IMG/VR virus record: IMGVR_UViG_3300025000_000089
Length of the DNA: 64,000 nucleotides
Origin: an uncultured virus (IMG/VR IMGVR_UViG_3300025000_000089)
Taxonomy: Duplodnaviria > Heunggongvirae > Uroviricota > Caudoviricetes
Strand: one strand, 5' to 3'
A model generated the notes under the pieces. That model was not told the origin of the DNA and ran no database searches. It saw nothing but the letters and a program-made list of their open reading frames with translations. The position numbers and the translations under genes were made by a program. Of the stretch, positions 34,953-60,147 are shown piece after piece. Within the stretch, counting starts at the first letter, position 1. Each line of letters opens with the position of its first letter.

Positions 34953-36071
34953 ATGGCAAATACCGCCGTAGCTGCAGGCCTCACTGTTCAGCAGTGGGAT
35001 GACAAGTTTTTTACCGAGTACATCCGCGCCAACCGCTTCAAGAAGTATATGGGCAAGGATGAGAACAGCATCATCCAGATGAAGGAGGATCTGACCGCCA
35101 AGAAGGGCAAGACGGTTACCTACTCCCTGGTCAACTCCCTCTCCGGCGCGGGCGTCACCGGTTCCGCTACCCTCGTCGGTTCCGAAGAGAAGATGAACAG
35201 CCGGTCCTGCACCGTCACCGTCAACAAGATCCGCAACGCGGTCGTTGTGCCGGAGATTGATGAGCAGTACAGCGCCATTTCCCTCCGCGATGCCGGCCGC
35301 GTGGTCCTGAAAGACTGGATTCTGCGCAAGACCAAGACTGACATCATCAACGCCCTCGGTCAGGTCGGCGGCGACTACGCAGGCACCATCTACACCATCT
35401 TTCAGGCAGCAGGTGGGGCAACCACCACAGCCCAGGATATCTGGTGCGCCGCCAACTCCGACCGCGTTCTTTTTGGGGCCGCAACGTCCAACTACTCCGC
35501 GACCTTCGCAACCGCTCTCGGCAACGTGGACGACTCCGGCGACCTGATCACCGCCGCCCGCCTGAACCTGATGAAAGCCCTCGCCAAGACCGCCTCTCCC
35601 GCGATCCGCCCCGTCACCGTCAACGGTGATGAGGAATGGTATGTGGTCTTTACCGGTACCAAGAACTTCAAGCGGCTCCAGGAGGACTCGACCATCGCCA
35701 CCGCCAACCGCGACGCCCTTCAGCGCGGGAAGGACAACCCGATCTTCACCGGCGACTCCCTCATGTACAACGGCATGATCATCAGGGAGATCCCCGAAAT
35801 CGGCGATTGCGCCATCACCGGTGGCACCTCTGCCGACGTGCAGCCGGTATTCCTCTGCGGCGCCCAGGCTCTCGGCTTCGCAGTGGCGCAGAGGTCCAAG
35901 ACCGTGACGGATGACACGGACTATGGCGATAAGGCAGGGGTAGCCTTGCAAGAGATTCGCGGGATTCAGAAGTTGATGTTCGGAAGCGATGCTACTGTAG
36001 ATACCACCACCAAGAAGGACAATGGTATCTTCACCGGCTTCTTCGCTGCACCTGCTCTGGCAAGCGCCTAG
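34953..36071 (+). CDS. Major capsid protein (DUF4043 / N4-gp56-like)
   Basis: YMGKDENSIIQ..DL..KKG.TVT..L..L.G.GV.G...L.G.EE; NPIFTG..YNG; strong codon bias. Confidence 0.9.
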   Translation: MANTAVAAGLTVQQWDDKFFTEYIRANRFKKYMGKDENSIIQMKEDLTAKKGKTVTYSLVNSLSGAGVTGSATLVGSEEKMNSRSCTVTVNKIRNAVVVPEIDEQYSAISLRDAGRVVLKDWILRKTKTDIINALGQVGGDYAGTIYTIFQAAGGATTTAQDIWCAANSDRVLFGAATSNYSATFATALGNVDDSGDLITAARLNLMKALAKTASPAIRPVTVNGDEEWYVVFTGTKNFKRLQEDSTIATANRDALQRGKDNPIFTGDSLMYNGMIIREIPEIGDCAITGGTSADVQPVFLCGAQALGFAVAQRSKTVTDDTDYGDKAGVALQEIRGIQKLMFGSDATVDTTTKKDNGIFTGFFAAPALASA

Positions 36072-36132
36072 GTAATCGTACTTGACTTTTCGTATACCAT
36101 TGTGGTATCTTGCTGACAAAGGAGATACCACA

Positions 36133-36798
36133 ATGCGAAAACAATGCACGGTTGACGGATGTGAAGAAAACGTAAAAGGCTTGGGTTTCTGCGCTAAGCA
36201 CTACCAGCAGTACAAAAAGGGGCGGGACCCGCACGACAAGACACCTCCCCCCCCCAAGGTGTGCAGCGTAGAAGGATGCAACAGGCCCCACACAGCGCAC
36301 AGCTTCTGCTCCATGCACCTATTGAGGTGGCAAAAGGGTCAAGACCTCAGGACGCCGAACAGGAACGGGCTGTCATTAAGAGAGAAATTTGACAAGTATG
36401 TTGTAAAGGGCGACCAGTGCTGGGGGTGGAAGGGCCATAAAAACGGTGACGGGTACGGGACCATTAAGGACAGCACCGATTACAGTGGCAAGAAGGCCCA
36501 CAGAGTTTCTTACGAACTGCATGTAGGCAAAATCCCCAAGGGAATGCTTGTTTGCCATAAGTGTGACAACCCTGGATGCGTTAACCCTGACCACCTTTTC
36601 CTCGGAACCCAGCATGACAACATGATTGACATGGCGATAAAGGGCAGGCACACGGGCAAGTTAACCCCTGATGAGGTTGCCAAGATAAGAACGTTGTCAG
36701 GGACAGACACCCACAAGAACATAGCTTCACTCTTTGGGCTAAGCCAACAAACAGTGTCAGCAATCATCAACCGTAAAACATGGAAGCACCTTCCATAA
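36133..36798 (+). CDS. HNH homing endonuclease
   Basis: Two C.V.GC..C..H zinc motifs, AHRVSY..VCHKCDNPGCVNPDHL.LGT..DN..D, C-terminal HTH; own promoter TTGACT at 36082. Confidence 0.9.
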   Translation: MRKQCTVDGCEENVKGLGFCAKHYQQYKKGRDPHDKTPPPPKVCSVEGCNRPHTAHSFCSMHLLRWQKGQDLRTPNRNGLSLREKFDKYVVKGDQCWGWKGHKNGDGYGTIKDSTDYSGKKAHRVSYELHVGKIPKGMLVCHKCDNPGCVNPDHLFLGTQHDNMIDMAIKGRHTGKLTPDEVAKIRTLSGTDTHKNIASLFGLSQQTVSAIINRKTWKHLP

Positions 36799-36810
36799 AG
36801 GAGATACATC

Positions 36811-37233
36811 GTGGCCGGAGAGACAACTTTGGATTTAGTCCCAACCGCCCCCCTGCTGACTTCCAAGTCCGTGGGGCAGCTCGTAGCACAAAAGCACGTT
36901 GTCGCAATCAGGACCACCGACCTTGCGACCAACGACATCACCGGAGTCTGCAAGGTTCCGGCAGCGTCTACCGTATTCGGCTTTTTCCTTCATACCGATG
37001 ATCTCGACAGCAACGCATCCGAAGCCCTCGTGTGGTCCGTCCTCATCGACACCACCGTTGTACAGGCAGGGATCACCAACGCGACCGCGAAGGCCGGTAC
37101 CTTCTTCGCCTGCTCCACTGGTCCCGTCACCGTGGACGCCGACACTGTTGTGTCGCTCAAGGCGACTACGGCGGCAGGGACCGCAGCGGCCGGCAACTGC
37201 ACCATCACCCCCGTCTACACCACATCCGCATAA
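36811..37233 (+). CDS. Capsid decoration/cement protein
   Basis: 140 aa Thr/Ala-rich, capsid-like codon bias, follows the capsid gene. Confidence 0.55.
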   Translation: MAGETTLDLVPTAPLLTSKSVGQLVAQKHVVAIRTTDLATNDITGVCKVPAASTVFGFFLHTDDLDSNASEALVWSVLIDTTVVQAGITNATAKAGTFFACSTGPVTVDADTVVSLKATTAAGTAAAGNCTITPVYTTSA

Positions 37234-37402
37234 GGAGGAGGGGCGGCAACGCCCCTTAACTCTATGGTCGTCAAGTACATCGGACCATCGGCATCGGTGG
37301 CCACTTTCGGACAAGAATTCATGCAGGGCGTAGCGGCGGCAGTTTCCGACCCTCACGCCTTCCGCAAACTCAGCAACAACCCCACTTTTGAGGTGGTCGA
37401 AC

Positions 37403-37759
37403 ATGGTGATAGGCAAACTGGCAGAGAAGGTGATGCAGAAGTTGGGAGTATTCGACCGCAGCAGCGGAATAGCGGCGGAAGACCTCGAAAACGTCGCTGA
37501 CGCCTACAAAGCCGTGTACTACGTCCTTTCGGATGACGGGCTCGTCTCATGGGCCTACTCCGCAAGCGACGAAGCCGACATTCCCGACCGTTTCAGCCTC
37601 TCGCTGATAAACCTCATCGCCGCCGAAATTGCCGACTTCTACAGCGTTCCCCCACCGGGGGAGGGGTGGCTGGCAACCAAGGAGATGGCAACGCGACAAA
37701 TCCGTAAGCAGCTTGCCAGTGGACAGCCGACAGAGACGGTTACTGCGGAGTACTACTGA
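37403..37759 (+). CDS. Head-tail adaptor (gp4 slot)
   Basis: A.KV.QKLGV..AED..IP...L..L.A....FY; translationally coupled to the gp10-like gene. Confidence 0.65.
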   Translation: MVIGKLAEKVMQKLGVFDRSSGIAAEDLENVADAYKAVYYVLSDDGLVSWAYSASDEADIPDRFSLSLINLIAAEIADFYSVPPPGEGWLATKEMATRQIRKQLASGQPTETVTAEYY

Positions 37760-39216
37760 TGCAGACCCGCTCTCTCCCCATAGGCAACGGCGTCACCCTG
37801 GACATCAACGACACCTCTGCAAAGGACGGCGTTTCGATTTCCTTCGTCAACGCGTACACCGACCGCAGCGGCGCAATCCGCACAGTACCCGGATGCACCG
37901 AATACGCCGACACCGGAGCAGGCGATGTGCCGGTATGGTCCTACTACTCCACCGACCTTGAGGTATTGGTTATCGTGGCAGGCGGGCGGATTTTCACGCA
38001 GACTGAGCAGGATGGGGCGCTCATCGAGGTATCCGGCGCGACCATTTCTCTGACCTCCCCTCCGACCTTCACCGAAGATGCCGACAACATCTTTTTCGCC
38101 GCCGACTCCGTGATTTACAAGTTGCAAGGAACCGCAGCAACCGCCGTTCCGAATTCGCCTTTGCACGTGACGAGCTTGGCCTACATCGGCGGCTACCTCA
38201 AGGCAAGGGGAGAGCTGGCAACTAGCGCAGTTGCAGGCGATACGCACTACAGCGACGATAAAGCCAACGGGTACGCGGCATGGGAGGTCTACAACAACGA
38301 GTCCCGCCCTGACGCGCTGATGGCGATTGTGGTGGCTTACGAGCAGATCTACAACATCGGGCGCACGTCGCTTGAGGTCAGCTACATCGACGGCACCGTA
38401 CCTTTTAGCGTCAACAAGAACGCCGCGCAGCACTTTGGGACCATGGCGCCTCACTCGGTAGTTTTCGACGGCGAGAGCCTGTACTACCTCACGGAAGTGG
38501 CGAAGAGCCGAAAGATCATCCAGCTTGCCGGTGGCGGCAGTCCTCAAATTATCTCCTTCCCCATTGACGTGCCAATAGAGAAGTTTGAGAGAGTGGACGA
38601 CGCGCAGGGCTTCATTATGGCATGGGCGGGGCAGAATGGGTACGCGATCACCTTCCCGACCGCCAACGCCGTAGTGGATGAGCAGTACTGGACCGGCATC
38701 ACCCTTTTCTATCACCTGCAGAGTAAGGCATGGATCATTCTCGGCCAATGGGACGCAGCGACAGCGACCTATGGACCCTATCGCGGTGTCTCCTTTACCT
38801 TCGTGGAGCCTTGGGGCTTGCGGCTCATCGGAGGCAGGGACGGCAAGCTGTACAAGCTCCAGGCTACGCAGGGGCAGGATTATACGGACGCACCGGAATT
38901 CCTGCACAGATGGCGCGATAACGGGACGAAGGAATGGGGCAACGGGCGGCAAGTGTCGCTAGGGCTGGCAGGGAGATACGAGCAGTTCCCCTCCATCCGG
39001 CAGTGTGGCGCATACCGCAGCAGACAGCATCAGTTCATCTTTACCGACCACACCGACGCAGGGGAGATATTCCGCGCTTCGATCAAGACCGGCCACATCT
39101 CACACAAGGTACCGAACAAGAAATCCGCAGTAATGTACCGCTATGACGTGCAGTGCGGGCAACCGGAATTTATGCTTAACGGCGTGGTCGAGCAGTTCGA
39201 CGTGCTTAGGAGCTAG
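37759..39216 (+). CDS. Tail hub (gp10-like), unit 2 allele
   Basis: 485 aa; about 18 substitutions vs 99-1556 by eye. Confidence 0.75.
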   Translation: MQTRSLPIGNGVTLDINDTSAKDGVSISFVNAYTDRSGAIRTVPGCTEYADTGAGDVPVWSYYSTDLEVLVIVAGGRIFTQTEQDGALIEVSGATISLTSPPTFTEDADNIFFAADSVIYKLQGTAATAVPNSPLHVTSLAYIGGYLKARGELATSAVAGDTHYSDDKANGYAAWEVYNNESRPDALMAIVVAYEQIYNIGRTSLEVSYIDGTVPFSVNKNAAQHFGTMAPHSVVFDGESLYYLTEVAKSRKIIQLAGGGSPQIISFPIDVPIEKFERVDDAQGFIMAWAGQNGYAITFPTANAVVDEQYWTGITLFYHLQSKAWIILGQWDAATATYGPYRGVSFTFVEPWGLRLIGGRDGKLYKLQATQGQDYTDAPEFLHRWRDNGTKEWGNGRQVSLGLAGRYEQFPSIRQCGAYRSRQHQFIFTDHTDAGEIFRASIKTGHISHKVPNKKSAVMYRYDVQCGQPEFMLNGVVEQFDVLRS

Positions 39217-39217
39217 T

Positions 39218-39661
39218 ATGGAATGTTGGGTAAGTCGTGAAGCGTTAAATGAGATGGTGTCAGAAGGTGAGCGTGTGTTCCCTCTAGAAACGGGGGGGCT
39301 ATTGCTGGGGTATTGGGGCAATGGCTCGCCAGTTGTTACAACAGCGATAGGCCCCGGCCCAAAAGCGACACATGAGCGGTTAAACTTCGAACCCGATTAC
39401 GACTGGCATACATTAGAAGTTGGCAGGCTTTACAAAGATAACGATAAGTTGTTCTATCTCGGAGATTGGCACACTCATCCATGTGGGCCGTCATTCCCTA
39501 GTGAGATGGACACTGGCGTGTTGCACATGCTTAAAAACAACGAAGACGCTCAAACGCCAAAACCCTTGATGCTAATTCTTGGTAACCACCTTGACCGCTT
39601 AGGAGCGCATTGTCTGACTTCAAATGGGGTAGAGTCGCTAGATATAAAGGTATTTGACTAA
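39218..39661 (+). CDS. JAB/Mov34/MPN metallo-isopeptidase, stand-alone
   Basis: ETGGLLLGY..GPGPKA..YLGDWHTHP....PSEMD is a complete JAMM motif; RBS AGGAG. Confidence 0.9.
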   Translation: MECWVSREALNEMVSEGERVFPLETGGLLLGYWGNGSPVVTTAIGPGPKATHERLNFEPDYDWHTLEVGRLYKDNDKLFYLGDWHTHPCGPSFPSEMDTGVLHMLKNNEDAQTPKPLMLILGNHLDRLGAHCLTSNGVESLDIKVFD

Positions 39662-39731
39662 TGGCGGGCGAGAACCCGCGTAAATGCTTTAGCCAGCCGG
39701 CTATACAAGACAGACAGAAAGGGAGACAGAC

Positions 39732-40052
39732 ATGATCATCAAAATTAAGCAAGGCGCAGTAGATCAAAACTCTTGGCGGTTCCACGATGGCGTTCATGAG
39801 TTCAGCTATGCAACCGTGCAACGCTCCGATATCCCTCTCTTAGGCGGTGTGCCTCATAACGAGCAGATGGGTATTCAGTATGAAGGTGACGATGGTGTTG
39901 TGAGGGAAAATCACTTTGTGGGGGCGGCAATTCCGGATTATTGCCTATGCCTTACCTTCATCGACTTTAACGGCAAACCCCACGAGGTTTATACCGACGC
40001 CCCGGTTTATCTACTAAATGACGGCGGCAAAACCATAGAGCGTTTGGCATAA
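39732..40052 (+). CDS. Hypothetical 106-aa protein flanked by 16-nt inverted repeats
   Basis: RBS GGGAG; ends VYLLNDGGKTIERLA. Confidence 0.7.
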   Translation: MIIKIKQGAVDQNSWRFHDGVHEFSYATVQRSDIPLLGGVPHNEQMGIQYEGDDGVVRENHFVGAAIPDYCLCLTFIDFNGKPHEVYTDAPVYLLNDGGKTIERLA

Positions 40053-40083
40053 CCACTAGCTGGCTGGCTAAATAAAGGAATTT

Positions 40084-41019
40084 ATGTCCGAAAACCCGCA
40101 AACAACCCTCCCCCCTGTCCCGCGTGAGCCGATAGTAAGCAGCGGCGGGCAGACCTCAGCGCAGTGGACCCGCTGGCTGCAACAGGTGCAGCGTGTCCTT
40201 TCTTTCGCGGGCGGGATAGCTTGGGGGATCGTCAACAAGGCGGGATCTCGGTTAACTGACATCACAATCCGCACCCATGCCATGTTGCAGGACGTTCTTG
40301 GATGGAGCAGCGACGCCGACGACGCCCAGGTGCGGCACATTTCCAACGCTGACGGAAAGGTCTGGCAGGACCATGTTGACGAGACAGACGGCAATCCGCA
40401 CGGCACCGACCATGCCATGTTGGATGAGATAGCCGAACTCGATCCGACCAGCACGGATCCGACCAAGGACCGGCACCTTTCCGACGCACAGGCTAAGGTG
40501 TGGCAGGGCCACACGGAAGCCACTGACAACCCTCACGCGACAGACCTTGAGCAAGTGACGGCAGCAGGGGCCAACTCTCCCATTCTGTTCTCCTGCGGCG
40601 GCAAAGTCGCTTTCACCCCCGAAGGCGGCGTGGCCGTCAAGCTCACCAACCGCACAGGGGCGGCATCGGTCAAGGGAAGCGTCCTCACCATGTCAACCGC
40701 CTACGATAACGCTTTCGCCCTACAGACAGCCGAATATGACGGCGTGGCAGTGGCATACGAAAGCGGCGTGGCAGACGGGGCGGAATCGTGGGTAGTGGTA
40801 TCGGGCATCGCGGAAGTGCTACTGAAAGACGGCACAGCGGCGACTCACGGCGCGTGGACGAAATGCGCCGATACGGACGGACGCGCAGAGGCGACAACCC
40901 CGCCAAGCGGCATAGGGGCGCTTTCTACGGCAGACCATTTCAAGGAAATCGGGCATTGCATCGAGAGCAAGACCGCAGGAACGGACGTGCTGGCAAAGGT
41001 CGTGCTGCACTGGAACTAA
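40084..41019 (+). CDS. Tail needle/plug protein, unit 2 allele
   Basis: Close homologue of 1847-2785. Confidence 0.6.
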   Translation: MSENPQTTLPPVPREPIVSSGGQTSAQWTRWLQQVQRVLSFAGGIAWGIVNKAGSRLTDITIRTHAMLQDVLGWSSDADDAQVRHISNADGKVWQDHVDETDGNPHGTDHAMLDEIAELDPTSTDPTKDRHLSDAQAKVWQGHTEATDNPHATDLEQVTAAGANSPILFSCGGKVAFTPEGGVAVKLTNRTGAASVKGSVLTMSTAYDNAFALQTAEYDGVAVAYESGVADGAESWVVVSGIAEVLLKDGTAATHGAWTKCADTDGRAEATTPPSGIGALSTADHFKEIGHCIESKTAGTDVLAKVVLHWN

Positions 41020-41032
41020 GGAGAAACGCGCG

Positions 41033-42079
41033 GTGATAAAAACCCTATCCCTCTGCCCCACATGCTTCCGCAAGATCGAGGCCGAAATTGTCTACCGTGA
41101 CGGGATGGTGATGATGGACAAGGAATGTCCTGAGCACGGCAAGTTTTCAGCTGTTGTGGAAAGGGACATCCAACACGTTTCCAACTTTTACCACCGTGGC
41201 ACTCTTGGCAACAACAACACCATCATCATCCACACTCACGACCAATGCAACATGGCGTGTCCGTGGTGCTATTACCCCATGGGAAGCGAACCGATGCACC
41301 CGTTCAGCTATTACGATCAGGTGCTATCGGCCTACAAGGGCTCGTTCAACCTCCTTATGTCGGGCGGGGAACCTACGTTGAGGCCGGACTTTTTCGAGTT
41401 TGCAGCGGAAGCCCACAACTCCGGATGGGGCATCAGTGCCATTACCAACATGTTGAAGCTGGCGGATCACGATTTCATGATTCAGGCCCTTGGCTCTCCC
41501 GCGCTCAACCATGGCGACATGCTCCGGTTCGCCGTTTCAATGCAGCACCCGAAGAACTACCCCGAAGAGGTCTATAACCTCAAGGTGCAGGCGATAGAGA
41601 ACCTTGAACGGGCGCAAAAGCGCGTCATGTGCGCCATGTTTAGCGTGCAGACACTGGATGAACTGGACTGGATACGCGAATGGTACGACTTGACCAAGGG
41701 CGGCTATCCGATGTTGCGAATCCGCACCATGTTCAAAAATTGGGGCAACAAGGGCGATGAGAACCGGCTTTTCCTGTCGGATCTGCACAAGGCGTTCTTG
41801 GAGAAGTTCGCAGACCTTCACCCGCGCATTTCCGAAAGGGTCGAGCATTCGAACATGTACTGCATCTATCTGGAAATGGACGGCGGTATGCAGGTATCGC
41901 TCAGTTCCGCGCCTACGGTCGAGAATCTTGACTATCATCAGGCATCGCGGCCCGTCTACATGCTGGCGATGGATGGGCGCTGCTACCCAGTCCCGATAAC
42001 GCAGGTAATTAATGAGGGAATCGAAGCCGGATGGAAAGACGGTTTTAGGCTCCAACAAGGAGGTACGGTATGTGGGTAG
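41033..42079 (+). CDS. Radical SAM enzyme, Tes/MJ0619-like architecture
   Basis: N-terminal SLCPTC..KECPEHG metal domain, CNMACPWC (CX3CX2C), SGGEPT, C-terminal DGRCYP. Confidence 0.85.
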   Translation: MIKTLSLCPTCFRKIEAEIVYRDGMVMMDKECPEHGKFSAVVERDIQHVSNFYHRGTLGNNNTIIIHTHDQCNMACPWCYYPMGSEPMHPFSYYDQVLSAYKGSFNLLMSGGEPTLRPDFFEFAAEAHNSGWGISAITNMLKLADHDFMIQALGSPALNHGDMLRFAVSMQHPKNYPEEVYNLKVQAIENLERAQKRVMCAMFSVQTLDELDWIREWYDLTKGGYPMLRIRTMFKNWGNKGDENRLFLSDLHKAFLEKFADLHPRISERVEHSNMYCIYLEMDGGMQVSLSSAPTVENLDYHQASRPVYMLAMDGRCYPVPITQVINEGIEAGWKDGFRLQQGGTVCG

Positions 42080-42750
42080 CGGCGGCAGTGGTAGGCGCGG
42101 CAGTAGTTGGCGCAGTAGCATCAAACGTGGCAGCAAACAAGGCATCGAACGCCGCCGACGATGCATCGAAGAGACAGGCATCATCGGCCAAAACTGCCCT
42201 TGAACTGGAAAAGGAGCAGTTTGAATACCAGAAGCAGCTCAACGAGCCGTTTTACAACATGGGCCTTCCTGCGGCGGCATCCTATGCTTCAGCTATCACA
42301 GGGGAGCCCCAGAAGTATGTCGGGCTTGACGGTGTGGAACGCACGTCTGAGGTGTGGAGGCCGGAAGAGACGGACGCTTACAAGTGGCAGCAGAGCCAGA
42401 TGGAGAAGAACACCAACCGCTCACTTCGGGCAATGGGGCGATACAACTCCACGTACGGCATGGACGCTATCACGAAGGGTAACCGCGACCTCGCCGCGTC
42501 CGAGTATGACCGGCAGTTGGGAAGGTTATCGGACCTCACCAACGTGGCAAGGGGCGGGGCTTCGTCGCTGTCGGCACTGTCGGGGCAGTACGCCAACAAC
42601 GCCGGAAACAACATCGTGAACTCCGGCAACAATCAGGCTAACTCGATGCTGGCAAGCGGGATGATAAAAACCAACGCCATGAACAACAATGTCCAGGGGC
42701 TTTACTCTCTAGCCAACATGGGGATGCAGTACTACGGCAACAAGAAATAG
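42070..42750 (+). CDS. DNA ejection protein, gp7-like
   Basis: Val/Ala leader, NEPFYNMG, LRAMGRYNST. Confidence 0.65.
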   Translation: MWVAAAVVGAAVVGAVASNVAANKASNAADDASKRQASSAKTALELEKEQFEYQKQLNEPFYNMGLPAAASYASAITGEPQKYVGLDGVERTSEVWRPEETDAYKWQQSQMEKNTNRSLRAMGRYNSTYGMDAITKGNRDLAASEYDRQLGRLSDLTNVARGGASSLSALSGQYANNAGNNIVNSGNNQANSMLASGMIKTNAMNNNVQGLYSLANMGMQYYGNKK

Positions 42751-42759
42751 GAGCCGACA

Positions 42760-44031
42760 ATGGATGTTAACTACCTCGCATATGCCGATGCTGTCGGACG
42801 CAACAATGCCAACGCAGACGGGTTAAAAAGCCTGAGAGAAACGCTGGAAAAGCAAAGCGAGTTGGCACGGCTTGCACCCCAAGAGGCGCAGACTGCAAAG
42901 CTCCGCGATATGCAGATTAAACAGGCGCAGATAACGATTGACGATGCCGTAGCCAAACAGGGTGCGTTGTCTTCAATCGGTGGCACGCTGCAGGGCGGCT
43001 ATGAGCAGCAGATGAGGCGGGAGCAGGAACAGAAGCAGACGGAAGCCAAGCAGAAGGGGCTTGAGACGTACCTGAACACCCTCAAGGCGCTTGACGGTAT
43101 GTCGAACCTCGACCCGAAGGTTAAGACGGACATTGGGAAGCATTTCCTTTCTCAGAATCCTGAGTATGCGCCGATTGCCGCAAACCTCACTTTCGTGGAC
43201 TCGCAGAAGGTCAAAGCCGCTCGGCAGTTCGGCGACGGCGAACTGAAAGACCCGACGACCGGCCAAGTCCTCCCTGCTGGATATTACGAAACAGAGGGAG
43301 AATGGACCGGCGATGCATCACAGCCGGTCAAGTTGACCAGTTACAAGCTTGTACCGGAGAAGCCTGACCAAGAGGCGCTGATCGACAAGCGATTTGCCAA
43401 CCAGCAGAAGCTGCAAGCCGAACAGATAGCAGCGCAGGACCGGCGCACGGCGCAGCAGATAGCGGCGGCGGATAGGCGGGCGGCGAAGTCTGGAACCCGC
43501 GACACGATGCAGGGCGGCAAGCCCACAGGCGGCAAAATCCTCCCCGCTGGCCAACTGGAATCCATCGCAGATATGAAGCGCGTCAAGGATGTCCTGGCTG
43601 AAGCATCCGACTTGCTCAAGGGCGGCAAGGTCGATACCGGACCAGTCTCAGGGCGCTTGCAATCTCTCGGCGCAAAGGTCGGGCTCGCATCTGACAACTT
43701 CGTCAACCTGCAGCAGAAGATGCAGACGGCAGAGAACATCATGCTTAAGCTCCGATCCGGCGCGGCTGTCACCGAGAGCGAGTACCAGCGGTTTAAGAAA
43801 GAATTCCCGCGCACAAGCGACACTCCCGAAGTGCGGGACCGCAAGATGTCTAACGCGATCCAGTACGCCTCAACACTCATGGACAGCAAGATGGACATTT
43901 ACGAAGAGGGCGGCTACAGAGTGCCGCAGAGCGTCAAGAGCGGCAACAAACCGGCGCAGAAGGGCAACGCACAGCCGAAACAGGGACAAACCAAGAAGGG
44001 CGGCAGGTTCACCATCATCGAGGTGAAGTAA
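42760..44031 (+). CDS. DNA ejection protein (gp20 slot), unit 2
   Basis: Near-identical to 4045-5295 from DQEALIDKRF onward; N-terminal half differs. Confidence 0.55.
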   Translation: MDVNYLAYADAVGRNNANADGLKSLRETLEKQSELARLAPQEAQTAKLRDMQIKQAQITIDDAVAKQGALSSIGGTLQGGYEQQMRREQEQKQTEAKQKGLETYLNTLKALDGMSNLDPKVKTDIGKHFLSQNPEYAPIAANLTFVDSQKVKAARQFGDGELKDPTTGQVLPAGYYETEGEWTGDASQPVKLTSYKLVPEKPDQEALIDKRFANQQKLQAEQIAAQDRRTAQQIAAADRRAAKSGTRDTMQGGKPTGGKILPAGQLESIADMKRVKDVLAEASDLLKGGKVDTGPVSGRLQSLGAKVGLASDNFVNLQQKMQTAENIMLKLRSGAAVTESEYQRFKKEFPRTSDTPEVRDRKMSNAIQYASTLMDSKMDIYEEGGYRVPQSVKSGNKPAQKGNAQPKQGQTKKGGRFTIIEVK

Positions 44032-45611
44032 TGGCACGGTACACCGTAAAGGACAACGCGACCAAGAAGACCGTCACCTTTGAATGGGAGGGAGATGCGC
44101 CGCCGACAGATTCGGATATGGCGGAAGTGTTCAGCGCGGCACGGACCTCCTCCCGTAAAGAGTACTCCCCCGCTGAAACTGAGCAAATGCGACGGAAATT
44201 CGTAGCCGACGAGGGTACTCTGCTCACCCGCGCAAAGGAAGCTCTCCCTTCTCGTCAAACTCTCGCCAATATCGCCCGACCGACCCTTGAGGCAGGGGGA
44301 GCAGTAGGCGGCGGCATCATCGGCGCAGCAGGGGGCGCACTGGCAGGACTTGGCATAGGCTCCATTCCAGGCGCAACAGTGGGAGGCGTGACCGGCGCAG
44401 GACTCGGTTATGCCATGGGCAAGAACATTGCCGACAACATCGAAGGGACCGCAGGCGGCACGGCGGGACAGATGACAGTGCGGGCGCTCAAGGACATCGG
44501 GACCGGCGCGGCATTTGAGATGGGGGGGCAGGTAGCGGCAAAGGTAATCCCGCCCGTTGTCGGTGGTACTGCGAAGTTTCTAGGCAAGGCTACTAAGCCG
44601 CTCCTCGGGCGTCTATCCGGTACAGGTACAGGAGCCGTAGAGGAGGCAATCGCAAGCGGGATGCAGCCGACCAATAGCATCAACCCGCTCAAGAGCACAA
44701 CGACCTACGACAAGGCGTTGCGCGGCAAGATTTCAGGTGAGGACATAGTTGAGTCCGCCCGCACTGCGTTGACCCGCCTCAAGGATGCCAGAACGTCCAC
44801 ATACCAAGGGCATTTACAGGAAATTGCGCAGAACTCTGCACCTATCGACCTCAGACCAGTCAAGGGTGAAGTGGTGAGTCTGATGCAGAAGTACAACGTC
44901 AAGATCGACCCTGCGACCGGTGCGCTTGACACCTCCCGAATTGCAATGGGTAAGACAGGACGCAACGACATACAGGAAATAATCGAAACGGTTTCGGCGT
45001 GGGGAACAAAGCAGGGTGATAACACTGCGCTCGGGCTTGACACGCTGAAGCGGCAACTTGACGACTTCTACTCCGACTCCTCCCAAGCGCGGCAGTTTGT
45101 GACGCAACTCCGCAACAAAGTTAAAGACACCATTGTAGCGAACGTCCCGCAATACGACGAAATGACCAAGGGATACACCGAAGCGACCAAGATTATCAAG
45201 GACGTGGAAGCGGGGCTTATGCTGCGAAAACAGGGAATGTCGGGGCGCATCGTTGCCGACCAGACCTTGAGGCGGCTCATGTCTGCCATGAAAGACAACT
45301 TTGCACTGCGGCGGGAACTGGTGGACATTCTCGGCAAAGAAGGCGGGGAGGAGTTGGGTCAAGCAATCGCCGGTTACGCACACAATTCCGTGATGCCGGT
45401 CGGGCTCGCTGGCACCGGACCCGCAATAATTGGCAGTGCGGCAGTCACAAGGATGGTTGACCCGTCATTCGGCGCACTCATGGCTGCATCGTCGCCGCGT
45501 GTTCAGGGCGAATTTTTGCGCATGTGGGGCAAGGGGATGAAAGGCGCTGTTGCAAGCAAGCAGGCGATTAAACCCTTGGCTGTAACGGCAGCGACCATAA
45601 CCGACAACTAG
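44031..45611 (+). CDS. Large DNA ejection protein (gp16 slot), 526 aa
   Basis: Shared first ~38 aa; Gly/Ala-zipper hydrophobic stretch; SSPRVQGE motif near the C-terminus. Confidence 0.55.
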   Translation: MARYTVKDNATKKTVTFEWEGDAPPTDSDMAEVFSAARTSSRKEYSPAETEQMRRKFVADEGTLLTRAKEALPSRQTLANIARPTLEAGGAVGGGIIGAAGGALAGLGIGSIPGATVGGVTGAGLGYAMGKNIADNIEGTAGGTAGQMTVRALKDIGTGAAFEMGGQVAAKVIPPVVGGTAKFLGKATKPLLGRLSGTGTGAVEEAIASGMQPTNSINPLKSTTTYDKALRGKISGEDIVESARTALTRLKDARTSTYQGHLQEIAQNSAPIDLRPVKGEVVSLMQKYNVKIDPATGALDTSRIAMGKTGRNDIQEIIETVSAWGTKQGDNTALGLDTLKRQLDDFYSDSSQARQFVTQLRNKVKDTIVANVPQYDEMTKGYTEATKIIKDVEAGLMLRKQGMSGRIVADQTLRRLMSAMKDNFALRRELVDILGKEGGEELGQAIAGYAHNSVMPVGLAGTGPAIIGSAAVTRMVDPSFGALMAASSPRVQGEFLRMWGKGMKGAVASKQAIKPLAVTAATITDN

Positions 45612-45676
45612 CAATCAGCCTGCATACCAATTAGCACGATCAAGATAAAACCTGCGAACAGAACATCAGCAAACAT
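45608..45676 (-). CDS. 22-aa hydrophobic antisense micropeptide
   Basis: MFADVLFAGFILIVLIGMQADC; RBS AGGAGG; extended -10 TGGTATACT (+ strand 45699-45707). Confidence 0.6.
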   Translation of the reverse strand: MFADVLFAGFILIVLIGMQADC

Positions 45677-45730
45677 AGACACCACCTCCTGATTTAGGAG
45701 TATACCACCACAACCAGAAAGGAGCCACAA

Positions 45731-45829
45731 ATGAAAGGTAAAGGAATGAGCATGGGTAAAGGAATGAAAACGGCCATGGCACCGAGGCCCCCGAAGCCGC
45801 CGAAGAAGCCCGGCACGAAGAAAGCCTAA
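45731..45829 (+). CDS. 32-aa Lys/Pro/Met-rich microprotein
   Basis: MKGKGMSMGKGMKTAMAPRPPKPPKKPGTKKA; RBS AAGGAG. Confidence 0.7.
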   Translation: MKGKGMSMGKGMKTAMAPRPPKPPKKPGTKKA

Positions 45830-45872
45830 CTGTAGGGGCTACGGCCCCTGCACTACCCCGCAAGGAGCCGTA

Positions 45873-46103
45873 ATGCCTACTTCAACACCTGAGCTTGCAT
45901 GGTGGGTAATGACCGGGGCTATCGCCGGTTTGCTATCGCTTATAACGCTGATGGTTGGAGCGTTGACCTATCTCGCCAAGGCCGGATTTGACCGAGTAAT
46001 TAGCCGCCTGGACACGATGCAGACCAGGGAAGCCGTCACTGAAAAGACGCTGGCGGAACACATCGCACGGTGCGAGGAGCGCCACAAGGAGCGCATGACA
46101 TGA
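45873..46103 (+). CDS. Small membrane protein, holin/antiholin candidate
   Basis: Homologue of 7680-7931. Confidence 0.45.
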   Translation: MPTSTPELAWWVMTGAIAGLLSLITLMVGALTYLAKAGFDRVISRLDTMQTREAVTEKTLAEHIARCEERHKERMT

Positions 46104-48064
46104 GTACTTACGCACAATCCATCGACTTCCTGCTATCCCAAGTGCGGACCTCTGCGGGCGCTTTGACTGGCGGATCAGTCTACGCCTACGCAGCCGGGAC
46201 CGACGAGCTGAAAATCATCTGGCTCGACAGGGCGAAGACCATCCAGGCGGCGAACCCCTACACGCTCGACGGCAACGGGACGGCGGCACTCTTTGGGGAT
46301 GGTTTGTACCGGATCCTGATCAAGACGAGCGCGGGCGTTACCGTCTACGACCGCGACAACATACAGGTAGTGGACCCTGCGAGCGGAGTAGATGACGCAA
46401 TCGCCGCCGCCGTGTCTGTCTACGTGGTCGGATATACCACCGGCTGCGACACTCTCGCCGCTGCAGTGGCTACGATTGGCAGCACCCGGGCAACGCTGCA
46501 ATTCGGCGCGGACTTGACGATAGCGGGGAACATCTCCATTCCCTCCAACATCGAACTGCTACCGGTCAACGGGGCGAAGATCAATCACGGCGCGTACACG
46601 ATTGCCTACCTTGGCAGCACCGCCCGCTGGCCGCTCGCACAGATATTCAACGGGACCGGTGCAATCACCTACGGACCCAATACGCCGTGGGATCACCCTG
46701 AATGGTACGGCGCAGTAGCCGACGCAGCGACGGACGGCAGCGGGACGGACTCGACGGTTGCACTGCAGAAATCGTTCAACTGCGCGACGCCGACGAAGCT
46801 CTCTTCCGGTAATTACCTGTTCAGCAACCTCACCCTCCCGACGCTCAAGACGGTGGTAGGTACCGGCATCCACTCGACCAACCTGATCGCCAAAACGGGC
46901 AGCACAGGGACCGCGATAACTGAGCAGGGATATGCGGCGAAGATCACCCTGCGCGAGTTTGCCGTCTACGGGCGCGACCAGGCTTACACGGGCGGGCTGA
47001 AACTCGGATACACGCTTGGCGGCACTGGCGTTTTCGGTACTGAGGGGCTGATAGATAACGTGTGGGTGCGCGACTTCCCCGCGGGCTTCCCCGGTATCGA
47101 CATCAACGCCAACGTGGGACAGTTCGGGCGCATCATGGCACAGTCTACGGGCGGCGTACAAATCATCGGAACCGGTAACATGGTCGGGCATGTGGAGTCG
47201 ATGCAGAGCAGGGGATTCACCGTCACCCGCTACGACGCGACTACCTTGCAAGCCGCGTGCAACTTTCAGGACACGCAAATCGGCGCGATTGAGGTCGAGG
47301 CGACGGATGAGGGCGTGGTTCCGATCTACTTCAGCGGCAACACGCACATCTCAAGCGTGTATCTGGCACCGACCGCAGGAGCAACGCACCCGCACCTGAT
47401 CGAAATGGACCCCTCTTCAACCACGTGGAAGATCGACAACCTGAAATTCTACTTTCACGTAGGTGACGCGCCGATCATCACGAACGGCAACATCAAATCA
47501 GGCTCCACCTATTTCGGCGGCAACGCATCGGGCAAGAGCTACGCGGGGCAGGGTAACTACTCCTCTGACATGTGGCTGGCGGGAAACACGTTCGCCGTTG
47601 CCAACCAGAAGCTGCAGAGTTTCGTGCTGTCGATCGCCAACAACACCAGCACGCTTCAGCATCGGTTCCAAGACACCTATGGCACCGGGGCGGCCACTCT
47701 TGACGATATGATCACCGACGCGGCCTACGCATGGAACAACACGCCGACAGGGACCGACGCGAGCACGGCTTTCGTAGCCGGCGGGAAGATAGGATCTGCG
47801 TCAACCAACACGTTTTGGCTCGACACGCCAAACGCGCAGATCACGGCCAACTGTCTGACCATGGCAGCGGTGCAGCTCAACTCCTGCGGCACGGCGCTAA
47901 CGGTGGTGCCGGCGATCTACGCGATAGACGTCAACGGAACATCGAAAGCGCGCCTCTGCCTGCAATTTTATAATGCTGCGACCGGCGCGGCGTATCCGCT
48001 GACCACTGCCAATATCGCGGATGGGAAGACAATCCAAGTGCTGTTCATGGGCTTTCTGCGATAA
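46100..48064 (+). CDS. Tailspike with a different receptor-binding body
   Basis: First ~188 aa nearly identical to 7928-10030, unrelated after QIFNGTGA. Confidence 0.8.
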   Translation: MSTYAQSIDFLLSQVRTSAGALTGGSVYAYAAGTDELKIIWLDRAKTIQAANPYTLDGNGTAALFGDGLYRILIKTSAGVTVYDRDNIQVVDPASGVDDAIAAAVSVYVVGYTTGCDTLAAAVATIGSTRATLQFGADLTIAGNISIPSNIELLPVNGAKINHGAYTIAYLGSTARWPLAQIFNGTGAITYGPNTPWDHPEWYGAVADAATDGSGTDSTVALQKSFNCATPTKLSSGNYLFSNLTLPTLKTVVGTGIHSTNLIAKTGSTGTAITEQGYAAKITLREFAVYGRDQAYTGGLKLGYTLGGTGVFGTEGLIDNVWVRDFPAGFPGIDINANVGQFGRIMAQSTGGVQIIGTGNMVGHVESMQSRGFTVTRYDATTLQAACNFQDTQIGAIEVEATDEGVVPIYFSGNTHISSVYLAPTAGATHPHLIEMDPSSTTWKIDNLKFYFHVGDAPIITNGNIKSGSTYFGGNASGKSYAGQGNYSSDMWLAGNTFAVANQKLQSFVLSIANNTSTLQHRFQDTYGTGAATLDDMITDAAYAWNNTPTGTDASTAFVAGGKIGSASTNTFWLDTPNAQITANCLTMAAVQLNSCGTALTVVPAIYAIDVNGTSKARLCLQFYNAATGAAYPLTTANIADGKTIQVLFMGFLR

Positions 48065-49891: not shown

Positions 49892-49987
49892 CACTGTTAG
49901 ACCTCCATGCGGCAGTAAGGACAATTGCACAAAAAACGACTATGGATAAATCTTTGAAAGCTTGAGGAAGGTCTACACTGGCAATTA

Positions 49988-50170
49988 TCACCCCTCCCCC
50001 CCTATCGTCCGCACCTTAATAAACTCCGTCACCGTCACCCCTGCCGCTTTCGCCCTCTGCCGCAGCGTCTCATGCTCATGATCCGTCACGCGTATGGACA
50101 TTTTATGCGTGGGGATTTCCTTGGGACGGCCTGCACCGTCGCGCTTGCCGCCTGAACCTTTACCGCCCAT
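49988..50170 (-). CDS. Ribbon-helix-helix protein
   Basis: Near-identical to 11316-11498. Confidence 0.75.
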   Translation of the reverse strand: MGGKGSGGKRDGAGRPKEIPTHKMSIRVTDHEHETLRQRAKAAGVTVTEFIKVRTIGGEG

Positions 50171-50182
50171 TTTGCACTCCTC

Positions 50183-50428
50183 TTAAACCATCTCAGCGAG
50201 TAGTTTCTCGGCATCGTCGCGGGAAACCATCTTGCTTCGTTGCTGGTAGACGTGGAAGAAGAAGTCAGTGGCTGTCTCTGCCAGTTTCTCGCCCGTGCGC
50301 GTGTCTACGTCGCGCTGAGTCGCCTCTACCGTGGTTGGGGTCAGTATTCCGTCAACCATGCGCGGGCCAGTGAACTTGAAATAACCCCCTGCCTTCGTTG
50401 CCTTTTTCACCATCTCTGATGTGGTCAT
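50183..50428 (-). CDS. Hypothetical protein in the DUF2786 slot
   Basis: Same upstream region as 11488-12060, unrelated coding sequence. Confidence 0.55.
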   Translation of the reverse strand: MTTSEMVKKATKAGGYFKFTGPRMVDGILTPTTVEATQRDVDTRTGEKLAETATDFFFHVYQQRSKMVSRDDAEKLLAEMV

Positions 50429-50536
50429 GTCCCCCCCCCCCCCGTTCTGCCTTAGTTGTCCCTCACTCTTGAAACAACTGTACACCCGCCCTTTTGCTTT
50501 GTCCAGTCAATAATCAAAAGAAAGTAAAATATTTTC

Positions 50537-50851
50537 TCAGCTATTCATCGCCACCGCCGCCGCGTAAAGTCTCGCCTTTCCCTGCTTGTCCATTTTCCCG
50601 ACCTCCTCGGAGAGTAGCTTATCTATCCCCTCCTGCTGATCGGGAGCTAATTGGAAGAACTCGGAGGGGGCGCAGGCGAAGACTTCGCAGAGGCGGGTGA
50701 GGGTGGAGCCACTGAGGCCGCGCCTGCCGTGTTCCATGGCGGAAACGTTCTGCTTGACCACGCCCAGATAGTGCGCAAGCTCCTCCTGAGTGAGTCCTGC
50801 CTCAATTCTCATCCTCCGTAAATTCGCGCCAGTAACCTTATTAATTTCCAT
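50537..50851 (-). CDS. CI-like XRE repressor, unit 2 allele
   Basis: HTH GLTQEELA..GVVKQNVSAME; C-terminal half nearly identical to unit 1. Confidence 0.85.
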   Translation of the reverse strand: MEINKVTGANLRRMRIEAGLTQEELAHYLGVVKQNVSAMEHGRRGLSGSTLTRLCEVFACAPSEFFQLAPDQQEGIDKLLSEEVGKMDKQGKARLYAAAVAMNS

Positions 50852-50889
50852 GTGACCCTCCACATGCTGAAAGTGACCGTCTTATAAGC

Positions 50890-50985
50890 ATATTGTAACC
50901 AACGTCTAACCGTTGTCAAAGAAAATTCGCAACAGATGATAAAATGTTGTTGACAGGTAACCACGAAAAGGTTACAAGGTTACGC
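50890..50985. promoter_or_regulatory. Divergent promoters and operator, unit 2
   Basis: TTGACA at 50950 (+) and ~50914-50919 (-); GTAACC-N7-GGTTAC at 50957-50975; extra half-sites at 50895 and 50978. Confidence 0.7.
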
Positions 50986-51025
50986 AACAGAAATGATTTG
51001 AAGGAAATAACGAAAGGGGCACCGT

Positions 51026-51181
51026 ATGAGCTTTGAAAAAATAGAAACAACGGGAATATGCCTTTGCATGGCAGGCATCGCTTGGATATGGCTCCCGTCA
51101 TTCGCAGCTGGCTATGTCACTGGCTATCTAGCCCATACGGTGATCCGAAAATGGGCCGAGCCAAGAAACGCAGAAATATAA
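51026..51181 (+). CDS. 51-aa membrane protein
   Basis: RBS AAGGGG; GICLCMAGIAWIWLPSFAAGYVTGYLA hydrophobic segment. Confidence 0.5.
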   Translation: MSFEKIETTGICLCMAGIAWIWLPSFAAGYVTGYLAHTVIRKWAEPRNAEI

Positions 51182-51188
51182 AAAGGAG

Positions 51189-51395
51189 GTGATTTGGATG
51201 AAGCAGAATAAACAGGGAAAAGCAGTAACACCGCCGCCCACAGATGATGTCAGGATTACGTTTGAGGTAGAAACGCCGGAAGAGAAACGGACGCTGTTCA
51301 GGCTGGCAAAGGCCAAGGACCGCACACTTAGCAGCTACATCCGCACAATACTCCGTGCAGCAATCGCGGAAGAGGAAAAAGCACAGGCAGTCTAA
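51189..51395 (+). CDS. Cro-position ribbon-helix-helix regulator
   Basis: VRITFEV..LA....RTLSSYIRTIL; ends QAV like the unit 1 gene. Confidence 0.65.
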   Translation: MIWMKQNKQGKAVTPPPTDDVRITFEVETPEEKRTLFRLAKAKDRTLSSYIRTILRAAIAEEEKAQAV

Positions 51396-52047
51396 CCCCT
51401 CACAGGGAGGCAGTCATGGAACGCTACAACGTGATAGTGACTAGCATTTTTCCGCAACCTAGCGGATTCGGCACGGCTCGCACGGTCATCAACCCGCAGC
51501 CGCTGAGCATCGAAGCCGCAAGCGACCTTGCAACAGAACGCCGCAAACAGGGCGCAGTCGTCACCCTGGAGGCGGTCAGGATTGAGCCGCTACCTTTGGA
51601 GGAAACATGAGCAAGGACGTTTGTAAAAAGTGCGGAGGCAACAATACATATTGGCGGGAAGATAACGCCGATACTGGCATGGATGAGCATGCACTAGTTT
51701 GCCGTGACTGTGACAGGAAACCGGCTCGGCTTCCGCTTTCGTTCCGAGTGCGCGAGTGGGCCAGTATCCGGTTTGGCCGGATGTGGGGCCGAGTAATTGT
51801 TACCAGACTTTTCCGACTAGCCCGATGGTCTGCCAAGGTCGGTAAGGGCCGGTGTACCTGGTGCGGCGCAGCTCCCGGCTTCTCTTCTGCCTATGTTGGA
51901 GGTAAAGGGTTGAGGTGCAGCTCTCACGTGAGAGATTGCACAGGGGCATAACATGCGTTTCACCCGCTGGACCCTGCCGCGCTGGGCGAGAGGGGAGGTG
52001 TAAGGAAGTGTCAACGGAGTGCTATTTCGGATAGGGGGGGGTGGGAA

Positions 52048-52464
52048 GTGAGGATAATTAAATTCAGAGCTTGGGACAGACGGCACCAGAAGATGCTTGA
52101 GAACGCTGTAAGGGTTGGTGAAATCCTATATTGGGACGGTGGAAAATGCTTCACCTTCATAACTGACTTTAACACTGACCCGCCGCGCCATGAGGTCATG
52201 CAGTTTACCGAACTCCTCGACAAAAACGGCGTCGAGATATGCGAAGGGGATGTGGTGAAGGGTTCCCACCCCGTAATGAGCCGCCCTGGTCACATCGACG
52301 GAAGCGTGCGCTTCATCGGGGTAGTAGGATACGACAGTCGATGGGGTGGCTTCCGTCGCCAAGGCGTCAATCAGTATAAAGGCTTATCCGCTGCACTTAT
52401 GCACGGGGAGGAGCTTGAGGTCATCGGCAACATCCACCAACACCCCGAGCTACTTAACCCCTAA
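52048..52464 (+). CDS. YopX family protein
   Basis: IKFRAWD..MQFT.LLDKNG.EI.EGD..EVIGNIHQHP. Confidence 0.9.
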   Translation: MRIIKFRAWDRRHQKMLENAVRVGEILYWDGGKCFTFITDFNTDPPRHEVMQFTELLDKNGVEICEGDVVKGSHPVMSRPGHIDGSVRFIGVVGYDSRWGGFRRQGVNQYKGLSAALMHGEELEVIGNIHQHPELLNP

Positions 52465-54073: not shown

Positions 54074-54322
54074 ATGACGATGCAGGAGATTTTCGAGAAG
54101 ATCAAGCTTGAGAACGCCCGCAGCAAGGAGAAGCACGGCATGTGGCGGGATACGCCAAGGCTCGACCAAGGCAACGCCATTTATGGTGAGTTTATCGAGT
54201 GGTGGCGCGCTTATGTAGCGGGCGACATCGACGGCGAACATGGCGAAAAGGCCGAGCTGATCCAGCTAGCCAACGTCTGCATCCGACGAATCATGGCGCT
54301 GACAGGGGAAAGGGACGCATAA
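54074..54322 (+). CDS. MazG-like protein
   Basis: Near-identical to 15832-16080. Confidence 0.5.
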   Translation: MTMQEIFEKIKLENARSKEKHGMWRDTPRLDQGNAIYGEFIEWWRAYVAGDIDGEHGEKAELIQLANVCIRRIMALTGERDA

Positions 54323-55539: not shown

Positions 55540-55609
55540 CCGGCTAGAGAACCACGACGAGCGCAGGAAGTGGAGGCGGCATAGGGTGGATGAGGACTAG
55601 GGGGAGTCA

Positions 55610-57040: not shown

Positions 57041-57199
57041 CTACCAGGGGCCAACACCTCTCGCCGTCGTTGCGGCCCCTGCTACAACCGCCCTTTGGGG
57101 ATTGGCTCCACTGGGCGGTAAGTTCTTAATATCTCTTGCACTAATTACGGTTTTTGTATATAGTACGCAGAAGCCGTAACTAACGCAAAGGAGATATGC

Positions 57200-60123: not shown

Positions 60124-60147
60124 CAGTGATATGCAGGAGGTAGTGAA

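Follow-up and report, generated by a model that had tools for sequence, protein, structure and literature searches.

In many podoviruses, the gene of the first DNA ejection protein, internal virion protein B (IVP-B; gp7 in P22), is preceded by a small non-structural gene that, like internal virion protein A (IVP-A; gp13) of T7, is acetyltransferase-like, and alternative proteins can substitute in the IVP-A position, according to Hardies et al. 2016 (PMC4819975). This study investigated a locus at which that position is occupied by a radical S-adenosylmethionine (SAM) enzyme. The locus lies in a 64,000-nucleotide (nt) stretch of DNA from an uncultured virus of the Caudoviricetes (IMG/VR record IMGVR_UViG_3300025000_000089), and this whole stretch is referred to as the window. 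Among solved structures, the closest described relative is the tetraether lipid synthase Tes, or GDGT-MAS (MJ0619; PDB 7TOL, 7TOM; Lloyd et al. 2022, PMC9433317). That report describes four cofactors, namely a rubredoxin iron ligated by CX2CX20CX2H (C9X2C12X20C33X2H36), an N-terminal auxiliary cluster bound by a second CX3CX2C, the radical SAM cluster, and a C-terminal auxiliary cluster that is the site of a substrate-sulfur intermediate. In GDGT-MAS, the active site is a hydrophobic lipid tunnel, and E. coli phospholipid co-purifies with the enzyme.

We consider it about an even bet (probability roughly 0.5) that the enzyme of the window modifies the ejection protein encoded by the next cistron. 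Because the enzyme sits in the acetyltransferase slot before the first ejection protein, it probably tailors that injected protein chemically, and this interpretation draws new support from the richness of the slot in enzymes and from fusions of relatives of the enzyme with GNAT proteins. The features on which the analysis centers are as follows.

41033..42079, + strand: radical SAM enzyme gene (GTG start, 348 aa)
41018..41024, + strand: Shine-Dalgarno-like site for the enzyme gene, 8 nt before the GTG, read from the sequence
41039..41161, + strand: rubredoxin-like metal-binding domain, residues 3-43 of the enzyme (PF23545, E 1.6e-18; ligands C8, C11, C32, H35)
41246..41269, + strand: CX3CX2C radical SAM cluster motif (C72, C76, C79), which aligns with the radical SAM motif of 7tol
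42057..42064, + strand: Shine-Dalgarno site of the ejection protein gene, inside the last codons of the enzyme gene, read from the sequence
42070..42750, + strand: gp7-like (IVP-B) first ejection protein gene, the candidate substrate (226 aa; phrog_598 'DNA ejection', E 3e-21)
42070..42126, + strand: Met-Trp dyad and Gly/Ala/Val hydrophobic segment of the gp7-like protein (residues 1-19)

Pfam assigned the enzyme two domains, the HMPTM/MJ0619 zinc ribbon Zn_ribbon_HMPTM (PF23545) and Radical_SAM (PF04055). A sequence search of the PDB returned GDGT-MAS (7tol, E 1.8e-23) as the sole strong match among solved structures. The AlphaFold (AF2) model of the enzyme (predicted local distance difference test score, pLDDT, 91.7; predicted template modeling score, pTM, 0.89) was then compared with known folds. 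Foldseek matched it to 7tol with an E value of 4e-18 and a template modeling (TM) score of 0.74, and VIA-align superposed 324 of its 348 residues on the same structure with a Z score of 30.1 and a root-mean-square deviation of 3.1 Å; the runner-up reached Z 17.1, and generic radical SAM cores followed at Z 17 or below, with peptide maturases at Z 13-17. A first-pass annotation, made from the sequence alone, had described a 348-aa gene with a CX3CX2C motif and a relation to Tes/MJ0619, and these results bear out each of these points.

The conservation of the cofactor ligands was examined in two alignments, one of 30 family sequences that are 49-75% identical to the window enzyme (A1) and one of 13 wider relatives, down to 24% identity (A6). 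In A1, 61 columns were invariant, including C8, C11, C32, H35, C72, C76, C79, the GGEPT box, C200, and C317. The four metal-site ligands, the three cluster cysteines, and the GGEPT box were invariant in 30/30 sequences of A1 and 13/13 of A6, and the CX2CX20CX2H spacing of the metal site was identical to that of the GDGT-MAS iron site. With at least 374 homologues and 61 invariant columns in the alignment of 30 sequences, chance is no concern. On the evidence of these alignments, the conserved ligands surely mark the enzyme as catalytic.

The enzyme nevertheless differs from Tes. No phage-type sequence in A6 carried the insertion between the rubredoxin domain and the core that holds the N-terminal auxiliary [4Fe-4S] motif (a second CX3CX2C and a His), whereas the insertion was present in two other sequences of that alignment (L212 and L159). 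Likewise, the phage enzyme showed no counterpart in A6 to the Cys-rich motifs at the C-terminus of cellular Tes homologues, nor did that alignment bear out a C-terminal match to Tes (DGR..P) proposed in the first-pass annotation. C277 and C317 were both lost in a 41%-identical family member (L036). The enzyme scored 64.7 bits against the NCBIfam Tes model, whose equivalog cut-off is 450. Its top NCBIfam match was the (seleno)protein TrsS (NF045646, E 1.2e-23), at 83 bits against a cut-off of 490, and the best-scoring stretches of both models fell at the N-terminus of the enzyme; the likeness to TrsS, a protein of 441 aa, thus concerns the N-terminal metal domain, with residues 3-55 only in the best stretch. 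Compared with GDGT-MAS, with which it shares the CX2CX20CX2H domain, the CX3CX2C core, and the overall fold, the phage enzyme is about 150 residues shorter, and its gene belongs to an operon of virion proteins in phages that are binned with bacteria. Because the N-terminal auxiliary motif is missing, the C-terminal Cys motifs have no counterpart, and the score is below the cut-off, we regard the enzyme as a Tes-fold relative and not as a Tes, and an equivalence to Tes is not supported. By sequence and predicted structure, it is a member of the MJ0619/Tes (GDGT-MAS) lineage with a Tes fold and forms a compact phage-restricted subfamily within it. At most one auxiliary cluster appears to remain in the family, and probably neither does. 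These sequence features suggest a stripped-down version of Tes, the chemistry of which need not be the C-C coupling of lipid tails; because the auxiliary cluster or clusters are apparently absent, the family could show what chemistry a minimal Tes scaffold performs.

We then surveyed the slot itself by analyzing 78 proteins encoded just upstream of a gp7-like gene with Pfam at E values up to 1e-3. The numbers of loci were as follows.

GNAT families: 14 loci, one of them partial
SET domains: 8 loci, all above the cut-off (L083, L084, L095, L107, L120, L122, L123, L151)
Sulfotransferase above the cut-off: 3 loci, one protein (L114/116/117)
Sulfotransferase below the cut-off: 4 loci
Asp/Asn beta-hydroxylase: 1 locus (L147)
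Cupin: 1 locus, below the cut-off
Homing HNH gene: 1 locus (L080)
Radical SAM enzyme: 2 loci
No Pfam match: 44 loci

Hidden Markov models (HMMs) built from the slot proteins classified 54 of the 78 as IVP-A/GNAT-like, and on some of these proteins the SET domains were located C-terminally. The same HMMs found no IVP-A/GNAT-like open reading frame (ORF) in the loci that contain the enzyme only, indicating that the enzyme replaces IVP-A there. The survey and PMC4819975 are thus in agreement with the earlier proposal that the enzyme occupies the slot of the acetyltransferase-family IVP-A (T7 gp13, P22 gp14). The enzyme shares with IVP-A its position between the tail hub/needle genes and IVP-B; it differs in having a radical SAM rather than a GNAT fold and in needing Fe-S clusters, SAM, and anoxia.

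In more distant relatives, the enzyme and the slot GNAT occur together. Two loci (L040/41) encode a 305-aa homologue with 30% identity to the window enzyme and all cluster ligands retained, followed by a 157-aa GNAT-fold protein (Atlas TM 0.87) and then by the gp7-like gene. In three others (L157, L231, L232), enzyme and GNAT are fused in one protein of about 455 aa, encoded ahead of the gp7-like gene, and such fusions accounted for 6/7 representative clusters of 468-490 aa. The occurrence of enzyme and GNAT as separate genes in one lineage and as a fused gene in another is classical evidence of a common task. With respect to P22 gp14 itself, Pfam returned DUF2824 only, the PDB search produced just a weak glyoxalase match, and BLASTP of gp14 against the GNAT domain of L157 found no match; the sole, indirect link between GNAT and DUF2824 was the slot protein of L142, which matched both (2.4e-4).

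The neighborhood of the enzyme was examined in 34 sequences with a full enzyme gene, 31 of which allowed the next gene to be resolved (all except L018, L024, and L028). In 30/31 resolvable loci, the next gene began between -13 and +4 nt from the enzyme stop, the exception being L009 (+130); the neighborhood check that the first-pass annotation had suggested thus revealed a tight link to the downstream gene. The next gene belonged to phrog_598 in 13 of the 21 non-redundant loci scanned with PHROGs, and an HMM built in this study from gp7-like proteins added L010, L153, L154, and L155. The gene upstream of the enzyme varied widely between loci. In L013/14/15/37, the enzyme was found between terminase and portal genes, and a 122-aa Gly/Ala-rich hydrophobic protein was encoded 1 nt further on. 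The enzyme and its downstream partner gene therefore move as a pair.

The N-terminus of the partner was compared between proteins encoded next to the enzyme (linked) and those encoded elsewhere (unlinked). In a gp7-anchored scan, a relative was encoded in 184/228 pattern-matching viral stretches, of which the best 80 were kept; only 2 of these best 80 loci contained the enzyme. The enzyme-less comparison set comprised 80 gp7-like homologues (76 from viral loci and 4 from cultured phages). At the start of the hydrophobic segment, a Met-aromatic or aromatic-Cys/Met dyad was present in 15/21 linked proteins and in 0/44 unlinked proteins after removal of redundancy (Fisher 2.6e-10), and an aromatic residue of any kind was present in 19/21 and 19/44, respectively (p 3e-4). 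In a gp7 core tree built from 84 of 105 rows, those left after the removal of rows more than 85% identical, and with the N-terminal 40 profile positions omitted, the linked proteins were scattered, with 10 changes, of which the supported branches force only 2.

The Gly/Ala/Val-rich leader as such had been proposed as evidence of a substrate, and as a specific substrate mark it was rejected. A hydrophobic start of this type was present in 67/80 enzyme-less gp7-like homologues, including those of Rhodoferax phage P26218 and of Vibrio and Thalassomonas phages, and it is consequently a trait of the gp7 family and not a mark of the enzyme. The same count confirms a caveat of the first-pass annotation, namely that hydrophobic leaders are common in gp7-like proteins. 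In one subclade of partners (L031, L032, L034, L036, L155), a hydrophilic, leader-like stretch of 25-35 residues precedes the hydrophobic segment. According to the P22 record, the host protein OpdA removes residues 1-20 of gp7, which we count as a precedent. In P22 gp7 (L230, 9369-10058), the Gly-zipper hydrophobic segment is C-terminal and not N-terminal.

The enzyme, a late and probably non-structural phage protein, thus occupies the IVP-A position immediately ahead of the first ejection protein gene, by itself in the phage of the window and, in more distant relatives, next to the customary GNAT or joined to it. Judged from its motifs, this protein is predicted to be an active Tes-fold radical SAM enzyme with a rubredoxin-like iron domain and a SAM-cleaving cluster. 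With regard to substrate, site, chemistry, and timing, we infer the following course of events. In the infected, anoxic cell, its 5'-deoxyadenosyl radical would be used on the ejection protein encoded by the following cistron, at a time when this protein has yet to enter the procapsid. Modification would most likely take place at the Met/Cys-aromatic dyad with which the hydrophobic, membrane-inserting segment begins, and a change at this site may alter the insertion or the survival of the ejection protein in the host envelope.

Several observations weigh against this course of events. The nearest solved relative, GDGT-MAS, acts on lipids and not on proteins, according to PMC9433317. Pfam detected no SPASM/twitch or other peptide-binding domain in the enzyme, although no structure-based search for a RiPP recognition element (RRE) was made. 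This would distinguish the enzyme from the radical SAM peptide maturases (SuiB, SkfB, EpeE, and the proteusin epimerases), which it resembles in adjoining the gene of a candidate substrate and in the generic radical SAM core, at Z scores far below that with GDGT-MAS; moreover, the candidate substrate here is a 226-aa virion protein and not a short peptide. The leader, as reported above, is widespread in the absence of the enzyme. The dyad motif was defined post hoc, after the data had been seen, and under looser settings it was present in 16/21 linked proteins and 1/63 proteins without a stand-alone enzyme (60 enzyme-less and 3 GNAT-type). The supported branches of the gp7 core tree yielded only 2 phylogenetically independent dyad pairs, which leaves shared ancestry as a possible source of the association. 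The gp7-like proteins of the GNAT-associated loci L040, L157, and L231 had neither the leader nor the dyad. Close gene spacing is usual across the whole ejection operon, and the homing HNH gene of L080 demonstrates that the slot tolerates unrelated inserts.

The last two observations lend themselves to a different explanation, in which the enzyme is an accessory gene in a permissive slot and has nothing to do with ejection proteins, its target being a host component or a small molecule, as in metabolism or counter-defence. The variety of unrelated families housed in the slot, the close spacing as an operon norm, the rarity of the enzyme among the best 80 gp7-anchored loci, and a sister phage in the window (unit 1, described below) that manages without the enzyme all fit such an accessory role. 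We nevertheless consider this explanation unlikely. A partner gene with a hydrophobic start was always found beside the enzyme in the 31 resolvable loci, even where the pair was located elsewhere in the genome; the enzyme either excludes or is fused with the resident GNAT of the slot; and the N-terminus of the partner co-varies with the presence of the enzyme.

A lipid-directed enzyme is, in our estimation, rather improbable. Such an enzyme would, like Tes, bind the end of an aliphatic chain in a hydrophobic tunnel. Its target would be a lipid of the host membrane, or one borne on the hydrophobic segment of the ejection protein, and its effect would be to prepare the lipid surroundings of the ejectosome and not to change the protein itself. 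The superposition of the whole predicted chain on GDGT-MAS is consistent with this role. The GNAT fold, with which the enzyme is associated, includes acyl-transferases. The lipid tunnel and the co-purifying phospholipid of GDGT-MAS (PMC9433317) also point in this direction, as does the membrane-inserting nature of the partner protein described in PMC8954989. However, the enzyme lacks the N-terminal auxiliary motif and any counterpart of the C-terminal Cys motifs, the C-terminal cluster being the substrate-sulfur site in GDGT-MAS, and it falls far short of the Tes cut-off. A lipid substrate would also leave the partner-specific dyad unexplained.

It is much less probable that the enzyme is a packaged effector, an internal virion protein that enters the cell along with the DNA and modifies host components at an early stage of infection. 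The name of T7 gp13, internal virion protein A (PMC4819975), suggests such a fate, but the slot gene of the phiRIO-1 group is described as non-structural in the same paper, and Fe-S clusters would be unlikely to survive unfolding and passage through the portal, as judged from the refolding described in PMC8954989. The location of the enzyme gene among the ejection protein genes is compatible with a packaged effector. A non-catalytic assembly chaperone that retains just the radical SAM fold is scarcely credible, for although IVP-A has a supposed role in assembly or infectivity, none of the cluster ligands varies, nor does the SAM-binding GGEPT box, either among the 30 members that are only 49-75% identical or among the 24%-identical relatives.

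If modification of the ejection protein is accepted as the working interpretation, a broader generalization can be put forward tentatively, as a possibility that we regard as less likely than its converse. The IVP-A slot of P22/epsilon15-like podoviruses would be a hypervariable locus for the tailoring of ejection proteins, at which interchangeable GNAT, GNAT-SET, sulfotransferase, Asp/Asn hydroxylase, and Tes-like radical SAM enzymes decorate the pore-forming ejection protein, and the radical SAM version would perform Tes-type C-H chemistry on a protein. Examples of such chemistry may be a crosslink at the Met/Cys-aromatic dyad or, within the helix that inserts into the membrane, a coupling that involves aliphatic side chains or an acyl chain.

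In the open full-text literature (subscription-only papers aside), we found no description of a phage ejection/IVP module with a radical SAM enzyme, nor of SET or sulfotransferase genes in the IVP-A slot; papers in which radical SAM enzymes are mentioned deal with other subjects. If the generalization about the slot proves true, this would be the first case of a phage virion protein modified by a radical SAM enzyme, and the long unexplained position of T7 gp13 and P22 gp14 would gain a function. Because the slot contains recognizable protein-modifying enzymes, the role of IVP-A, a question of decades, becomes directly testable. Covalent tailoring of ejection proteins would further bear on how podoviruses breach the envelope in anoxic habitats and may represent an adaptation to anoxic hosts.

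The distribution of the family was determined by several searches. A word-indexed metagenomic search, at E values up to 1e-3, yielded the at least 374 homologues mentioned above; among the 120 homologues listed, lengths were 314-366 aa, and many were encoded on contigs of 20-57 kb. An exhaustive profile search yielded 83 representative clusters at E values up to 1e-30. No family member was found in the 50,697 records of GenBank phages, in which tblastn with the enzyme returned one generic match with 22% coverage, tblastn with the gp7-like partner returned no match, and megablast of window positions 36000-48000 returned no match. IMG/VR contained 36 loci with 41-100% identity (L003, L005-L039) and two with 30% (L040/41). 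Among 185,579 species represented by one genome each, three contigs of metagenome-assembled genomes (MAGs) carried a member; these contigs were 26-42 kb in length, all had phage gene content, and they were binned with Sulfurovum, Geobacteraceae, and Nitrospiraceae. The family is therefore a large, uncultured, phage-restricted branch of the Tes fold.

Several members and relatives had unusual structures. In L024 (4419-5468), the enzyme gene is split into ORFs of 205 and 136 aa, whereas it is intact in the near-identical L030 (7001-8050); the split gene is a pseudogene or an assembly error. Homologue P0235 (671 aa) carries a LAGLIDADG homing-endonuclease (intein-like) insert that separates the zinc ribbon from the radical SAM core, which recalls the intein-containing Tes variants listed in NCBIfam. 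A search for fused forms of at least 610 aa returned solely cellular Tes-like proteins with 23-31% identity and no fusion of the enzyme with gp7. Cellular relatives of 408-410 aa with 28-31% identity were encoded in two Omnitrophota MAGs (L156 and L158, at about 3490-8180). Their gene neighbors there encode a UbiA prenyltransferase, a radical SAM/SPASM protein, an M28 peptidase, and a small membrane protein rich in Gly; the cluster could specify a pathway for a lipid or a peptide and so give a hint of what the ancestral enzyme did.

The operon around the enzyme gene contains the following further features.

37759..39216, + strand: Hc3 / P22 gp10-like tail hub gene, the start of the tail/ejection block (485 aa; phrog_578, E 1.1e-20)
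40084..41019, + strand: 311-aa gene at the position of the P22 gp26 needle, assigned by its position in the P22-like gene order only
42760..44031, + strand: gp20-like second ejection protein gene (423 aa), assigned by position, without a Pfam or PHROG match
44031..45611, + strand: gp16-like third ejection protein gene (526 aa), assigned by position, with a weak phrog_167 match (E 7e-6)
41024..43364, + strand: exchangeable cassette made up of the enzyme and gp7-like genes together with the gp20-like gene's 5' half, delimited by blastn against unit 1

The order of the Hc3 gene, the needle-position gene, the enzyme gene, and the genes of the 226-, 423-, and 526-aa proteins parallels P22 genes 10-26-14-7-20-16. 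The 311-aa protein, which had been called a tail needle, had no match in Pfam or PHROG and carries that label by position only. Patterns of promoters or + strand terminators that would split the ejection block were not above chance. The last 10 nt of the enzyme gene overlap the start (ATG) of the ORF at 42070-42750, and both this overlap and the partner N-terminus were as originally reported. The Gly-Gly...Cys-Gly tail of the enzyme is accounted for by the embedded ribosome site and the overlapping next start codon, and similar tails were present in homologues wherever the next gene overlaps; a conserved Cys-containing tail as a functional motif was accordingly rejected as a by-product of this arrangement. 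The gp7-like protein matched our gp7 HMM at 6e-28 and, at 226 aa, is close to the 229 aa of P22 gp7, which is encoded in an equivalent position. Pfam PF25688 (P22_gp7) did not match it at E values up to 1, indicating a distant member of the family.

The window consists of three related podovirus genome segments (units), at 1-12,400, 12,400-49,900, and 49,900-64,000. The second of these, unit 2, matches a 37.5-kb IMG/VR contig, and units 1 and 2 are mosaics of blocks with 82-94% nt identity and swapped cassettes between them. A blastn comparison of unit 1 with the rest of the window revealed that positions 2790-4628 of unit 1 replace the cassette at 41024-43364 and contain no enzyme. The flanks of the cassette are 91-94% identical at the nt level between the two units, whereas the cassette itself is unmatched. 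On the upstream side, the Hc3 gene region has about 91% nt identity to block 1-1555 of unit 1, and the 311-aa needle-position gene has 90.8% nt identity to positions 1855-2789. On the downstream side, residues 129-423 of the gp20-like protein are 78% identical in amino acid sequence to the corresponding protein of unit 1 (42760-44031 versus 4045-5295), but no relation exists over its first 128 residues; the gp20-like protein is thus chimeric, indicating a recombination joint inside its gene. The first-pass annotation had stated that unit 1 lacks the enzyme and has a second gp7 paralogue instead. The absence of the enzyme was confirmed, but the paralogue was not: the product of 2795-3424 is gp7-like (4.7e-12 with our HMM) and has no hydrophobic start, and the product of 3433-4044 was not detectably gp7-like by the same HMM.

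In unit 2, the needle-position gene is separated from the Hc3 gene by two further genes, which encode a Prok-JAB (JAB/MPN) protein (39218-39661, E 4e-12) and a 106-aa protein (39732-40052). In this interval, unit 1 encodes a 90-aa phrog_1048/872 protein instead, and the Prok-JAB gene in the tail module could serve a deubiquitinase-like counter-defence. An HNH endonuclease gene (36082-36798; HNH_3, E 2e-14) directly follows the major capsid protein gene.

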